Assembly (NCBI GenBank): GCA_048941265.1
Contig: JBHLNT010000096.1
Coordinates: forward strand, 1 to 15,745
Reading direction: 5' to 3'
DNA length: 15,745 bases
DNA from: Promethearchaeota archaeon
Lineage (GTDB): Archaea > Asgardarchaeota > Lokiarchaeia > Sigyniarchaeales > SOKP01
Below the pieces are notes generated by a model, which made no database searches, was not told the DNA's origin, and was given only the letters and a program-made list of their open reading frames with translations. Positions within the stretch are counted from its first letter, which is position 1, and each line of letters begins with the position of its first letter. The position numbers were made by a program, and so were the translations under genes. Below, one piece after another: positions 347 through 14,858 of the stretch.

Positions 347-3124
347 CTAAGTTATAATAATTGCCGGTCTTCCAGGCAGAGCTTGACTTGCCTTTTTTTC
401 TTTTGAATCTTTTTCATTTAAAACTTCGATATCACATTGATATTTTTTATTTAGGATTGGTTTAATTTCTTGAAAGAATTGGAATTCTTCTTCAGAAGAA
501 AGTGAAATTTTAGAATATTTGCCAACATTTTTCAAGATTTTAGCAGTAATTTGACTGATACTTTTACTATATGGTTTTAAATCGCTTTCTTTCATCATTT
601 TTTTCATAATTTCTCCCTGATTTCTGGTATCATCCAGCGATGACATCAAAAGATCATAGAATTTAAATTTCCATTCCTTCGCGATAATGATCGAGATCTT
701 TGCTAACTTCTCTTGTTTCATTACTAATTTGATATTGTTAATATCGTCTCCAATATTGTTCATTAGCTTCCATTTAAAATCATTTTCTATAGTAAGAAGA
801 TTTTCGTTATAATTTGGCCATGAGGTTAGACTGGCATAATTTTTGTGTCCTTTCATCTCCCAGATTTCTTCGGTCATATGCGGAGCAATCGGATGCAGAA
901 GTAGAGTAAGTTTTTCGCAACATTCTTCGAAAATTTCTTTTATCACTCCTTCATTCTTATATTTAGTCAAATCAGACGTAAATTGGATGATATTGTTAAC
1001 CGCGTCCCTAATTGCGATTTTTTCGAGACTTTCCGTAACTAATTTTATGGTCTTGTTTAAATTATAGATGATAAGCATATCCCTTATAGTTTTTTTCTTT
1101 CGAATGTTTTCTGGAGGTTCGGAAAGCAATATAAAAGTGTTTCTTATGAATTTATAGGCAAAACCGACACCTTCTTCAGACCATTCCAATCCAGATTCAG
1201 GGCTAGCCCCAAAAAGGATAAAGAATCTCGCGCCATCTGCTCCATATTCATTCATAATCTCAATTGGATCAACAGTATTTCCGTAGGATTTACTCATCTT
1301 AACGCTCTTTAATACATATTTGGTTCCGCATTGTTTGCATTTCTCATCATGCATTTCGGCTTTCATAGCAAAACTTTCACATTTAGGACAATACGGATGG
1401 GCTTTATTTATCATTCCTTGAGTCAATAGGCGCTGAAATGGCTCATCAGCTTTTTGGAGCCCTAAATCTCGAGAAATTTTTGTAAAAAATCGAGCATAAA
1501 GAAGATGCATGACCGCATGTTCAACACCCCCTATATACTGGTCTACGTTCATCCAATAATTGACAATATCTTTTCTGTAAGGCAACTCATCGGTGTGAGG
1601 ATCGCAGAATTTAATGAAGTACCACGAGCTATCTACAAATGTATCCATTGTATCCGTTTCGCGTTTTGCTGCCTTGCCGCATTTGGGACATTTGGTATTC
1701 ACAAAACTCTTGCTAGTTTCTAAAGGATTTCCTTTTCCGGTAAATTTAACATCCTTAGGCAATTCAACAGGCAAGTCTTTATATGGCACGGGTACTATCC
1801 CGCATTCATCACAATAGATAATAGGTATGGGGCATCCCCAGTAGCGTTGACGGGAAATTAGCCAATCTCTTAACTTATAATTAATAGTAGCTTCACCCAT
1901 TCCTATTTTTTCTAATTTTTCAGTAATTGCATGAATAGCAGCACGATTTTCCATACCATTAAACTCATCAGAATTTACTAAAGTACCGTCTCCTTCATAT
2001 GAGCGCGTCATTTTGTCTAATTTTAACTCATAATCGAATGGTTGAATTACAATTTTAATCGGGATATCATATTCTTTTGCAAATTCGAAATCTCTTTGAT
2101 CATGTGCAGGTACAGCCATGACCGCACCAGCCCCATATTCAAAGATGACAAAATTACCAATATAAACGGGAACTTCTTCATTAGTCATAGGATTTACGGC
2201 ATATTTTCCGATAAACATTCCTTTTTTCTCAATTTCTATATCTGTTCTTTCAAATTTGTTTTGTTTCATAACTTCTCGATATAACTTTTCGAAATCTTTC
2301 TCATACTCAGTACCTTTAACCCATTCCCTTACCCATGGATGTTCAGGAGCGAAAACCATAAAAGTTACCCCATATAATGTGTCTGGTCTGGTAGTAAAGA
2401 TGTCAATTGTTCGATCTTCATCAACAATAGGAAACTTAATAATTGAACCCTCGGAACGCCCAATCCAATTTCTTTGCATAATCTTTACTTTTTCTGGCCA
2501 ATCTACAATATTCAATCCATCTAATAATTCTTCTGCATAAGCGCGTATCTTTAAAAACCATTGAGTCAAAAATTTCTGCTCTACATCAGAGGTACAACGC
2601 CAGCACTTCCCCCCCTGCACCTGTTCATTTGCTAGTACCGTATTACATTTATTACACCAATTCACATAAGAGCCTTCTCTATAAGCTAATTCTTTTTCAA
2701 AGAATTTTAAAAATAACCATTGATCCCATTTATAGTAATCTATATCATGGCTAAATATTAAACGGGTCCAATCATAAGAAAGCCCAATTCTTTTTTGCTG
2801 ATTTTTAATTGCTTCTATATTTGAATCAGTCCATTCTTCTGGATTGGCCCCATGATCAATTGCAGCATTTTCAGCGGGCATCCCAAAGGAATCATAACCC
2901 ATGGGATATAAAACATTAAATCCGCACATCCGTTTATATCGAGCATAAGCATCACCTATTGAATAGTTTCTAAGGTGACCTATATGAAGATGAGAGCTAG
3001 GATATGGATACATTTCAAGAACATAGAATTTTTCTTTTTTTTCTTCTTTAACCTCAAAAATTTTGTCCTTTTCCCATTTATCCTGCCATTTTTTCTCAAT
3101 TTTTTGAAAATTGTATTCAACCAT
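347..3124 (-). CDS. leuS: Leucyl-tRNA synthetase (bacterial-type core with archaeal-type C-terminal domain)
   Basis: 925 aa. Class I motifs [13 protein letters not shown] and KMSKS. Bacterial LeuRS signatures [25 protein letters not shown], editing-domain [10 protein letters not shown] and [61 protein letters not shown]. Ends [15 protein letters not shown]. Confidence 0.98.
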
Positions 3125-3132
3125 TATACTCT

Positions 3133-3145
3133 AACTCCCTTTTTT
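3133..3145 (-). promoter_or_regulatory. leuS ribosome-binding region (AAAAAAGGGAGTT; GGGAG 10 nt before the ATG)
   Basis: Minus strand reads ...TTTGAAAAAAGGGAGTTAGAGTATAATG. Shine-Dalgarno-like purine core at 3135-3139. Confidence 0.6.
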
Positions 3146-3236
3146 CAAATTTTTCATACACGTACTATTGTTTTGTTTTTTATTGCTTTTATTTTTTTCA
3201 CTTTTAAGATTTCAAGTAAGCTACGCAATATCTACT

Positions 3237-3315
3237 GACCTCTTTTTAGTAAAATTTACACACCGAGCAAACAAATCCGTGTTAAGGTTTTAAAAAGAGG
3301 TCTGATTTGCTTGCT
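3237..3315 (-). promoter_or_regulatory. Structured leuS leader RNA (candidate attenuator) with interleaved helices A:A' and B:B'
   Basis: Minus-strand order: A AGCAAGCAAAUC (3315-3304), B GACCUCUUUUUA (3302-3291), A' GAUUUGUUUGCU (3277-3266), B' UAAAAAGAGGUC (3248-3237). B:B' is a perfect 12-bp inverted repeat. A:A' gives 12 pairs with one G-U wobble that works only on the minus (leuS) strand. Confidence 0.75.
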
Positions 3316-3319
3316 TTCT

Positions 3320-3379
3320 TTATAATAATAATAATAATAGAACTTTGCTAAGAATTTGTAAACTTAAAGAGTTCTTCAT
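3320..3379 (-). CDS. Putative leucine-rich leader peptide of leuS (MKNSLSLQILSKVLLLLLL; 25-aa form MISNNN... if started at in-frame ATG 3397)
   Basis: ATG AAG AAC TCT TTA AGT TTA CAA ATT CTT AGC AAA GTT CTA TTA TTA TTA TTA TTA TAA. Nine of 19 codons are Leu, with six in tandem just before the stop. Same strand as leuS, stop about 195 nt upstream of its start, and directly followed by the structured element. Confidence 0.75.
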   Translation of the reverse strand: MKNSLSLQILSKVLLLLLL

Positions 3380-3422
3380 ATTATTATTTGAAATCATTAT
3401 TATATTCGATAAAATATTATGA

Positions 3423-3438
3423 ATTATAAATGTTTTCC
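3423..3438 (-). promoter_or_regulatory. Candidate archaeal BRE/TATA promoter for the leader-leuS transcript
   Basis: Minus strand GGAAAACA-TTTATAAT, with the TATA at 3430-3423. It ends about 25 nt upstream of the in-frame ATG at 3397, which fits a near-leaderless start. AT-rich context limits certainty. Confidence 0.5.
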
Positions 3439-3518
3439 TATTATCTTGAATTTAAATAGAACTTATAAAATTCTTGGAAGAAAGATTTTTTTTAAAAAAA
3501 GTACTAGTTAAAATAGGT

Positions 3519-13106: not shown

Positions 13107-14858
13107 TTAAATGTTTTGAACAATCCATTCCATCTCAAAAAATAATTCTTCAAAACTTTTTTCATCTTTTACTTTTTTCCCTCTTTTAATTGCTAAAATA
13201 GTATCCATAAAGCGTGTTATCCTTCGTATTTTATGTCTATGTATTCCTGGTTCTTTATCTTTGACCATCTCTATCACATTTTTAGTCGTTATTTGATTAC
13301 CACCAAGTTGTGAATTTAATTTTCTTTCTAACCTTCTGTATAGTAAGGTTAATGCTTTATCATATTTACTTTTATCTCGATACCATTCAATTTTTTTAGC
13401 AAAAAAGGATGAGGTTCTAAATCGTGCTAATTCTTCTTTTTTTTCTTCTTCTGCTGCTTTTTTTTTCTCCTCTTTTTCATCTTTTTTGGGTAAATACCTT
13501 CTTAAAGTATAGACAGCTAAAAGAGGATATAGCCAAGCAGTAAGAGGATTTGTAGATAATTGGACAATATATTGAATAATAAACCCAAATATGCCTGCTG
13601 AGGAGATATCTCTTGAGTTTTCTGGACGAATATGAGCCTCATCAAATACAATCATCCAATCATCTTGATCATCACCCTCGTCATCACGAGTAAGCCATTT
13701 AATTATATTTATAGCAAATTGCTGGTTATCATAACCATCTTCATTCAATAATTCATTATTAAATAAACTTGCATCGGCAGATACAAATATTCGAGCATCT
13801 CCTGTATCCTTTGCCATGAATGGAGCTTGAGGATATCCCCCGAGAGGGACTTTAGTTAATTCTTCAGGAAAATCCCCTCCAATTGTATCTATTATAAATC
13901 CTATATCAATATTGTCATCATCGTAATCATACATCTTGTCATCGTTCATGTCAACAAAACTATATATACTAGAATATCCAATAACATCCCATCCGGAAAA
14001 TTCGATGAATGGTCCACCAACTGCAGCAGAACTTTGTGATAAAATTACTTTATCTATCCCATTATTTATTGGATGGTCTGTAAATGTTTTAATAACGGGG
14101 AAATCTGGGCTTGTATCATAAGATTCATTATCGCGTAATGTGCCATCAGGAAAAATTGTTATTGGAACAGCGTCTTGTACATCAGGATTAACCATGTTTG
14201 CTAAATATATTTCATATAATAAATTACTCGTAGAACCATAATCATGACATATTAATATAGAATTTCCATCTTCAAAGAACTCCATAAAATATGGTATTTC
14301 ATTAAGTGGATTATAAAATTGATTAGTACCTAATAAAACTAAACAAATTTTTTTATCCAATCGCTTAGTTGCGCTTAAACTGGATTGAATATTATAACAA
14401 TTATATCCTTCATCTTCTAACAACTTTTTAAGATCAGAAGATCCTTGCCAATCTTCATTATAAACCGAGAAATTATGGTTATTTTTGCCTTGATCTATAA
14501 TAGGTGCTAACAATGGAACAAAAGAAAAAACAAAGATTAATATAAACAACGCTTGTTTATAAATTGAACCTGCTTTTACTTTTCTTCTTGATCTGACTTC
14601 ACGAGTTTTTTGTATTCTAGTATTTCTTATAAAAATAATCAAACTTATTCCTGTAAATCCAGCTCCTAAATAACATAATAAAGGTAAATAATTCATATAG
14701 GCTCTTAATTCTCCTGGACGTGATTGATTATAAGAGCTAATAAAAAAGGAAATTACAATTCCAAAAATAATTAAATATATTGTAAAGAATCCTAAAATTA
14801 TGCCTTTCGAGACATTAACACTTCTTTGGGAAGATTTTCCGCCTTTTACTTTTACCAT
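13107..14858 (-). CDS. Membrane protein with a DUF4350/GATase-fold-like extracytoplasmic domain
   Basis: Three N-terminal hydrophobic segments, FSVYNEDWQGSSDL, LICHDYG, HPINNGIDKVILS, RIFVSADASLFNN, DNQQFAINII and IVFDEAH, then a membrane segment and a basic helical C-terminus. Typical position upstream of moxR. Confidence 0.7.
   Translation of the reverse strand: MVKVKGGKSSQRSVNVSKGIILGFFTIYLIIFGIVISFFISSYNQSRPGELRAYMNYLPLLCYLGAGFTGISLIIFIRNTRIQKTREVRSRRKVKAGSIYKQALFILIFVFSFVPLLAPIIDQGKNNHNFSVYNEDWQGSSDLKKLLEDEGYNCYNIQSSLSATKRLDKKICLVLLGTNQFYNPLNEIPYFMEFFEDGNSILICHDYGSTSNLLYEIYLANMVNPDVQDAVPITIFPDGTLRDNESYDTSPDFPVIKTFTDHPINNGIDKVILSQSSAAVGGPFIEFSGWDVIGYSSIYSFVDMNDDKMYDYDDDNIDIGFIIDTIGGDFPEELTKVPLGGYPQAPFMAKDTGDARIFVSADASLFNNELLNEDGYDNQQFAINIIKWLTRDDEGDDQDDWMIVFDEAHIRPENSRDISSAGIFGFIIQYIVQLSTNPLTAWLYPLLAVYTLRRYLPKKDEKEEKKKAAEEEKKEELARFRTSSFFAKKIEWYRDKSKYDKALTLLYRRLERKLNSQLGGNQITTKNVIEMVKDKEPGIHRHKIRRITRFMDTILAIKRGKKVKDEKSFEELFFEMEWIVQNI

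Follow-up and report, generated by a model that had tools for sequence, protein, structure and literature searches.

Ribosome-mediated attenuation is a textbook consequence of coupled transcription and translation. In E. coli pheM-pheST, a leader open reading frame (ORF) has codons cognate to the downstream synthetase and is followed by alternative RNA pairings. In E. coli leuL and the Rfam Leu_leader family, a short peptide with a leucine run gauges Leu-tRNA, and in the E. coli tna operon (TnaC, Rho-dependent) the ribosome stalls at the stop codon through free tryptophan acting on the nascent peptide. Attenuators of the classical type have been predicted upstream of leuS, and likewise of trpS, in Streptomyces (Seliverstov et al. 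2005, PMC1262725), and that paper also describes an actinobacterial LEU element before leuA, in which a Leu-run upstream ORF (uORF) is combined with interleaved helices and the Leu codons pair with the Shine–Dalgarno (SD) sequence of leuA as base stem. Mycobacteria carry leaderless poly-cysteine short ORFs, a ‘ribulon’, in which a structure covering the ribosome-binding site (RBS) of the following gene is opened by stalled ribosomes (Canestrari et al., bioRxiv 10.1101/834739). Here we analyzed a 15,745-nt stretch of DNA (the window; contig JBHLNT010000096.1) from a Promethearchaeota archaeon, in which leuS, the gene of a leucine–tRNA ligase (LeuRS), is preceded by a short ORF ending in six leucine codons and by an RNA region with two mutually exclusive predicted folds. 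No archaeal leader-peptide attenuator was found in the literature searched, in which subscription journals were little covered, and neither ‘attenuat’ nor ‘leader peptide’ occurs in a 2026 cross-domain review of termination (PMC13675443).

The leuS element is closest in logic to the Streptomyces leuS attenuators, E. coli pheM-pheST, and leuL. It shares with the Streptomyces attenuators, as described there, a leader ORF with codons of the synthetase’s amino acid and the alternative pairings that follow; unlike them, it has no hairpin plus U-run, its host is archaeal, and its presumed sensing codons stand at the very end of an ORF predicted to be leaderless. With E. coli leuL and Leu_leader it has the Leu-run peptide in common, and the source genome also has a leuA leader, but sequence, fold, and host domain differ. 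In its predicted leaderless start and its lack of a terminator, the element is closest to the mycobacterial poly-Cys short ORFs: a first-cistron short ORF has a run of one codon type, several loci serve one signal, and a terminator is not needed. In contrast to the mycobacterial arrangement, the leuS RBS lies ~75–90 nt past the switch, and the predicted folds leave this RBS unpaired. The LEU element resembles the leuS leader in its Leu-run uORF and interleaved helices, but the Leu run in the window pairs with an AAU run inside the uORF in the minimum free energy (MFE) fold and not with the leuS SD sequence GGGAG. As the leuS element lacks both the terminator of the classical type and the RBS sequestration of the mycobacterial type, it is a member of neither. 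As in tna, a ribosome at the end of the leader ORF, near the factor-entry site, could shield nascent RNA; a role of FttA/aCPSF1 at the leuS leader is speculation.

We consider it likely that the leuS element acts in cis, at the head of the leuS mRNA, as a gauge of Leu-tRNA(Leu) supply that the ribosome reads. Its parts are listed in Table 1. An earlier note on this DNA had named a BRE/TATA-like box (BRE, B recognition element), a uORF, a Leu run, interleaved helices, and the leuS RBS, and all of them were found in place. The leader ORF has 9 Leu in 25 codons, 6 of them consecutive, and its peptide matched no Pfam family. An internal ATG at 3379 would yield a 19-aa version, but the equivalent codon reads ACG in two of the four copies from the genus of the source genome (G007 and G008); the 25-codon frame from 3397 is therefore the conserved one. 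The start of the TATA box lies 33 nt from the uORF ATG, and the 25 nt between the promoter box and ATG 3397 contain no SD sequence. A TATA-like box was present 31–35 nt 5′ of the uORF ATG in 24 of 28 homologous leaders. The same motif, the AAAAAAATTTAT-like one of the family promoters, lay ~70–85 nt before the leuS ATG in most relatives without the leader. Archaeal TATA boxes centre ~26–27 nt before the transcription start site. Because of this spacing, the leader ORF is probably leaderless, with transcription starting within a few bases of its ATG, and it would be the first ORF to be translated.

The RNA behind the leader ORF was predicted to fold in two ways. Helices A1:A2 and B1:B2 interleave, and a third pairing, which the earlier note had not described, joins the A1 region with segment D. 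A1 begins 8 nt past the first base of the leader stop codon, and in the full-length fold its pairing reaches 5′ to 3320. The A1:A2 hairpin and the long nested stem (A1:D plus B1:B2) are mutually exclusive, as A1 is common to both. When the transcript was cut before B2, the MFE fold was A1:A2 (−13.1 kcal/mol, z = −2.12), and the same was seen in 13 of 13 leaders. The core RNA (3322–3211) contained A1:D and showed an MFE of −29.0 kcal/mol; its z-score was −2.97, and 1 of 200 shuffled sequences reached this value. The long stem is the predicted thermodynamic ground state. At full length, 12 of the 13 leaders folded B1:B2 inside an outer A1–D helix and G016 stayed in A1:A2, and when 14 nt from the stop codon were masked, B1:B2 persisted in all 13. 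By topology, helices A and B could form a simple H-type pseudoknot; the nested alternative explains these pairs with no knot needed. The predicted folds thus give an early hairpin and a stabler long stem with A1 in common, which is the logic of an attenuator minus the terminator hairpin.

An 11-sequence alignment, made of the leuS leaders of both cassette-bearing genera and two paralogues, was used for the pairing statistics. Helices A and B paired in 84.5% of the cells, compared with 37–55% when the partners were slid by 1–3 columns. Six pairs were changed on both sides, three in helix A and three in helix B (e.g., C-G to U-A in helix B of G008). The covariation score was matched by 0 of 500 shuffles, a statistic that overstates the case, as the alignment consists of related sequences, one of which supplied the structure. 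Of 28 leaders, 25 had a T≥5 tract whose start lay at +23 to +27, counted from the stop codon’s first base (background, 31% of 40-nt intergenic windows).

Table 1. Features of the leuS locus in the window; positions are those of the forward strand.
Feature	Sequence	Position	Strand	Remark
BRE/TATA-like promoter	AGGAAAACA-TTTATAAT	3423..3439	−	read from sequence
Leader ORF uORF1, 25 codons + TAA	MISNNNMKNSLSLQILSKVLLLLLL	3320..3397	−	ATG at 3397
Six-Leu run, presumed sensing codons	CTA + 5×TTA	3323..3340	−	followed by TAA 3322–3320
Segment A1	GCAAGCAAATC	3304..3314	−	pairs with A2, or with D
Segment B1	AGACCTCTTTTTA	3291..3303	−	pairs with B2; holds T5 at 3296–3292
Segment A2	GGATTTGTTTGC	3267..3278	−	pairs with A1
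Segment B2	TAAAAAGAGGTCAG	3235..3248	−	pairs with B1; bears SD-like GAGGT
Segment D	GATATTGCGTAGCTTACTT	3214..3232	−	alternative partner of the A1 region; closes long stem around B1:B2
A-rich spacer, mostly unpaired (~75 nt)		3140..3213	−	unpaired in MFE fold
SD-like sequence of leuS	GGGAG	3135..3139	−	read from sequence
leuS, 925-aa leucine–tRNA ligase		347..3124	−	start ATG at 3124
lipS2, lplA, lipS1, thioesterase, cofE, cofD		from 3474	opposite to leuS	

Orthologous leuS upstream regions were read by eye in 50 cases, of which L013, L025, and L018 were too short or badly anchored; the other 71 upstream regions of bacterial-type leuS genes were covered by a covariance-model search alone. The full cassette was present in G001, G007, and G008, which belong to the genus of the source genome, and in G016, G041, and G044 of genus g8 (71% LeuRS identity). 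A shorter leader was seen in G002, G005, and G009 of the same genus, in G043 of g8, and, G004 and G006 apart, in all remaining regions read. Between the two cassette-bearing genera, helix sequences and Leu codons differ. The leader ORFs of the source genus keep their start (MISNNN), their length (24–25 codons), and a V-L5/6 end, whereas the middle varies; the A-rich spacer is conserved at the nucleotide level in G001, G007, and G008. The earlier note had asked for synonymous variation of the Leu codons in relatives, and mixed codons were indeed seen in G008 (CTA TTG TTA TTA TTA TTA), G016 (TTA TTG TTA TTA CTT), and G044 (CTC TTA TTG GTG CTC). Its proposal of a Leu-run uORF with a switchable RNA is borne out as a conserved leuS-linked cassette: the helices covary, and the model matches adjoin leuS in relatives.

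A covariance model of the cassette (R1) was searched in 135 genomes of the family at E ≤ 0.01 and gave matches in 106 of them; the search ran with Infernal’s stricter filters, so that weak copies may be missed. At 29 of the 30 best R1 loci, an ATG ORF of ~24–30 codons with a Leu/Val-rich end stopped where the match starts. By hand cross-tabulation, an R1 match adjoined the bacterial-type leuS in only 9 of the 121 family genomes with that gene; these nine belong to genera g1 and g8. The archaeal-type LeuRS (TIGR00395) was present in 72 of 135 family genomes (g11, 41/54; g2, 29/42; g12, 1/1; g3, 1/7; g1, 0/9; g8, 0/5), and 48 of these 72 genes, again cross-tabulated by hand, had an R1 match 60–190 nt upstream on the same strand; 3 of the 24 without a match have the gene’s 5′ end at the contig end. 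Five genes downstream of R1 were confirmed as archaeal-type LeuRS, and their leaders start with MISNN like the leader in the window. In the archaeal-type leuS leaders the stop codon falls inside helix A, and an RNAalifold consensus of eight of them showed an outer helix made of the A1 region and the segment after B2.

R1 thus lies upstream of both types of gene, and one cassette therefore serves two non-orthologous leuS genes. Judged from the sequences, the cassette belongs to the regulated leuS of the lineage; in g1 and g8, in which an archaeal-type gene was not detected, it sits at the bacterial-type one. Several further genera are also without an archaeal-type LeuRS and yet have no cassette at leuS. 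The suggestion of the earlier note that the element may have arrived with the bacterial-type leuS did not hold, as 112 of 121 genomes carry this gene without the cassette and a homologue of the cassette precedes the archaeal-type leuS in sister genera. A regulatory module at leuS would have been kept while the regulated gene was replaced, and the same cassette at two non-orthologous genes is a clean natural experiment for function.

In the source genome, 4139 genes were called (crude gene calls), and ATG-started uORFs of 6–45 aa were listed in 3358 upstream regions. An L6 run occurred in 1 of 4108 uORFs, the leuS leader, and L5 runs in 3 of 4108. Two of the four uORFs with at least five consecutive Leu precede Leu-specific genes: leuS and leuA (2-isopropylmalate synthase), where an L5 uORF lies 93 nt before the gene. 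For a wider view, 3367 uORFs of 8–60 aa were ranked by single-residue enrichment and the downstream genes were then named. The MKIMKIIPICIIIISSIIIGIII uORF, with 14 Ile in 23 residues, precedes the citramalate synthase gene cimA; the MVPVNNLAWRWQWTWRWR uORF, with 5 Trp in the 17 residues after the start Met, precedes TrpB2; a uORF ending in ITWFWIWRWHA, with 4 Trp in the 22 residues after the start Met, precedes TrpA; and a Leu-rich leader with 14 Leu in 37 residues precedes leuA. The top two Trp-enriched uORFs of the 3367 both precede trp genes. Other enriched uORFs precede unrelated genes (uvrC, MCP, hydrolases, and others), so not all of the list is signal. The scan of amino-acid genes for cognate-codon uORFs that the earlier note had advised was thus productive at leuA, cimA, trpB2, and trpA.

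Two of these leaders recur in other genomes. Leu-rich uORFs with a terminal Leu run were found 92–122 nt before leuA at 17 of 26 loci (14/17 in the family, 3/9 outside it), and W-x-W-x-W uORFs before trpB2 at 14 of 20 family loci and at 2 of 10 loci from other families. Read by eye, the trpB2 leader hairpin consists of the last Trp/Arg codons, the stop codon in the loop, and a 3′ arm, and both arms vary between genera. The cassette itself has a paralogue before ilvE in the source genome (C266), with an I/V/A/L-rich peptide ending in AIDVIVAAALVL and the same scaffold, and an orphan paralogue at C351, followed by a 45-aa ORF that matched no Pfam family. No tRNA gene was found downstream of the orphan cassette copies at eight loci.

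Several observations were made around these leaders. The orphan (G000 C351:12005-12136, minus strand; locus L078 1721-2025) has a Leu/Val-rich leader, MTSNTTTSNTLLRVLGVLVLVVVL, and the A/B/D scaffold. A similar leader plus small ORF was seen at L119, L123, L126–L128, L130, L131, L133, L135, and L137–L140; the ORF is conserved, 45–55 aa long, and has a strong SD sequence and a Y..FF.P.EI-like motif. This protein appears, from its position, to be under the same control as the leuS cassette; in genus g11 the ORF precedes fwdA by ~365 nt. The interval from the Trp leader to trpB2 (L082–L101; e.g., G000 C189 ~14640-14790) contains a ~40-nt imperfect palindrome, GTGCATTA..TATTGATTTCCAATA..TAATGA.ACAC, followed just before the SD sequence by a small hairpin whose stem changes on both sides between genera. 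Palindrome and hairpin persist even in genomes without the Trp uORF.

The proposed mechanism of the leuS element is as follows. Transcription would start a few bases before ATG 3397, and the leaderless 25-codon ORF would be translated while the RNA is still being made. The speed of the first ribosome over the six terminal Leu codons would then select between the exclusive folds in the next 110 nt. The edge of a ribosome footprint lies ~12–13 nt beyond the A-site codon, counted from its first base. By this measure, a ribosome on Leu codons 1–5 ends at or before +6, whereas a ribosome on the stop codon covers the 5′ half of A1. As A1 starts at +8, slow decoding would therefore favor A1:A2, and timely arrival at the stop codon would favor B1:B2 and the long stem. 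A ribosome lagging on the Leu codons would leave A1 free to pair with A2 once A2 is made; a timely ribosome at the stop codon would cover A1 while B1 pairs with B2, and after its release A1 would close on D to give the long stem. This reverses one step of the earlier note, in which the stalled ribosome masked segment A: the footprint estimate leaves A1 free on most Leu codons, and masking of A1 would fall to the terminating ribosome. Starvation would switch leuS on, by analogy with pheST, T-box-controlled synthetase genes, and the biosynthetic ilvE, although it may instead switch the gene off.

Either the fold or the closeness of ribosome and polymerase at the U-tract would set the amount of full-length, translatable leuS mRNA. 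Candidates for the output step are termination (by oligo-U or of the aCPSF1/FttA type), mRNA stability, and translation. According to the termination review (PMC13675443), archaeal RNA polymerase can stop at oligo-T without a hairpin, and aCPSF1/FttA recognizes U-tracts in terminators through its KH domains and cleaves nascent RNA as it leaves the exit channel. With its 3′ end in the U-tract, a polymerase would stand right against a ribosome that occupies the last Leu codon or the stop codon. A stalled ribosome would then shield the nascent U-tract RNA, and the A/B/D switch would later hide or expose the U-tract. Shielding of the U-tract RNA by the ribosome is our favoured output, a guess that draws on geometry only.

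A broader interpretation, tentative and in our judgment rather doubtful, is that Asgard archaea have ribosome-read leaders genome-wide, for leucine at leuS and leuA, isoleucine at cimA, tryptophan at trpB2 and trpA, and mixed branched-chain residues at ilvE, and that the leuS/ilvE cassette uses ribosome-gated U-tract termination with A/B/D lock-in and without a bacterial counterpart. The ribosome on the last Leu codons, or just released at the stop codon, would be one polymerase footprint behind the U-tract 24–27 nt downstream. It would decide whether hairpin-independent oligo-U or aCPSF1/FttA termination acts, and the A/B/D switch would lock the decision. Should the leuS gauge itself be real, the closest prokaryotic relatives of eukaryotes would sense amino-acid supply with the translating ribosome, transcription–translation coupling in these archaea would be tight enough to carry regulatory information, and regulated premature termination by a hairpin-independent archaeal polymerase would become directly testable.

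Several results weigh against the leuS element being a ribosome-read gauge. There is no hairpin-plus-U-run terminator, as the window has no U-run after A2, B2, or D; among 13 leaders only G008 has a T6 after B2, and the T5 of the window lies inside B1. The bacterial attenuation layout claimed in the earlier note therefore stands for its sensor half and not for a bacterial-type terminator. In the MFE folds the leuS SD sequence and AUG are not sequestered by leader segments in any predicted case. As part of helix B, the U-tract may owe its conservation to structure alone. G004 and G006, of the same genus, keep homologous helices with an 8-codon TTG frame only, and the leaders of genus g8 have an interrupted terminal run (VLSLVL, LLLVL) and encode peptides that resemble hydrophobic helices. 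The bacterial-type leuS genes without the cassette include 3 of the 9 from the source genus, and the covariation statistics are inflated, as noted above. For the actinobacterial LEU element, mutation of the Leu codons is stated to have left regulation unchanged (Seliverstov et al., PMC1262725), so that a Leu-run uORF alone is no proof of ribosome sensing.

A second uORF, starting from the SD-like B2/D region and coupled to the leuS start, was considered as an output and rejected as a general mechanism: an SD sequence and a start codon near D were present in only 5 of 13 leaders, and the recurrent ‘+8’ stop arises from the conservation of the first leuS codons. A 24-codon TTG frame, MRSLLEILKVKKIKAIKNKTIVRV (window 3154–3228, minus strand), has its start 9 nt past the SD-like GAGGT in B2. 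Open in G007 and not in G001 or G008, this frame is probably not a conserved second uORF.

The findings in G004 and G006, where the helices outlast a convincing ORF, would also be expected if the A/B/D RNA were an operator or resembled a riboswitch, with a protein, a tRNA, or a small molecule as its reader and the ORF incidental or a helper that, for instance, loads ribosomes. The LEU element, with its Leu-run uORF and pseudoknot, was judged a probable protein site by its authors (PMC1262725), its Leu-codon mutations being without effect. We regard such an element as improbable at leuS, because nearly every inspected R1 match (29 of 30) is preceded by an ORF that ends exactly at the switch, and because the residue bias at the ORF end follows the downstream gene, L6 for leuS and I/V/A/L for ilvE. 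Unrelated scaffolds in the same genome place Trp-, Ile-, and Leu-rich ORFs before matching genes, and an Rfam scan of the whole window on both strands gave no match at E ≤ 1, T-box included.

The hydrophobic character of the peptides from g8 and of the small-ORF type (e.g., MSLLMKKVQNILLFVLLLVVVLLLLL), which resemble a transmembrane helix, raises a further alternative: 3397–3320 would be a separate gene for a small hydrophobic membrane peptide, with a transcript ending at the U-tract, and leuS would have its own promoter in the A-rich stretch. A T5–T7 tract does follow the leader stop codon, and the spacer holds AAAAAAATAAAAG, with a faint resemblance to the family BRE/TATA motif. The sole good match to the family promoter motif is, however, upstream of the uORF. 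Within the genus, the leader peptide shows poor conservation in its middle but retains length, start, and Leu run; the cassette stays before two types of leuS and before ilvE; and the helices beyond the supposed U-tract terminator covary, which together make a separate peptide gene quite improbable. That the run is a (TTA)n microsatellite, in frame with an ATG by chance, has a negligible probability. The genome has ~30% G+C, and the window’s Leu run, in AT-rich intergenic DNA, repeats its trinucleotide perfectly, but the L6 run is unique among the 4108 uORFs, the Leu codons of relatives are mixed and not a repeat, and ORF length and adjoining helices are conserved across genera. The ribosome-read gauge therefore remains the reading that we prefer for the leuS element.

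The leuS product in the window matched TIGR00396, the bacterial-type LeuRS, with 950.6 bits (cut-off 548.4), and its core is by this profile match bacterial-type. Residues 4–816 fit TIGR00396, and residues 603–924 align with positions 614–937 of TIGR00395, up to the profile end; the protein may therefore be a bacterial-type core joined to an archaeal-like C-terminal tRNA-binding end. An archaeal-type LeuRS was searched for in the source genome (91% complete) and none was found, leaving the LeuRS of the window as the sole one; no tRNA genes were found within the window. The nine sequencing runs found for this DNA are all DNA runs. The earlier note’s assignment to an Asgard host was confirmed: IlvE is 90% identical to a protein of a Promethearchaeia archaeon, and two are 67% identical in Promethearchaeota and Hodarchaeota metagenome-assembled genomes. 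An archaeal host also fits the gene content (LipS1/LipS2, F420 genes, CdhD, and FrhB).

Outside the leuS locus, the most biased uORFs of the source genome are the overlapping (GAT)n/(ATG)n uORFs MADVDDGWDDDDDDDDYDDDDDD and MSMMVGMMMTMMTIMMMMMMINFNK (G000 C255:1717-2100, minus strand; L057), which lie 360–373 nt upstream of a 265-aa ORF without an NCBIfam family. In G001, the closest relative, a 109-aa fragment with an in-frame TAG, 76% identical to the C-terminal end of LeuRS, sits ~1.2 kb downstream of the intact leuS (C6:1138612-1138923, minus strand). In at least nine family genomes (G014, G049, G130, G121, G145, G126, G148, G144, and G127), the bacterial-type leuS showed 1–3 in-frame stops, and its first 200 residues occupied 627–663 nt compared with the usual ~600 nt; the extra length and the stops may represent a short insertion or a small intron.

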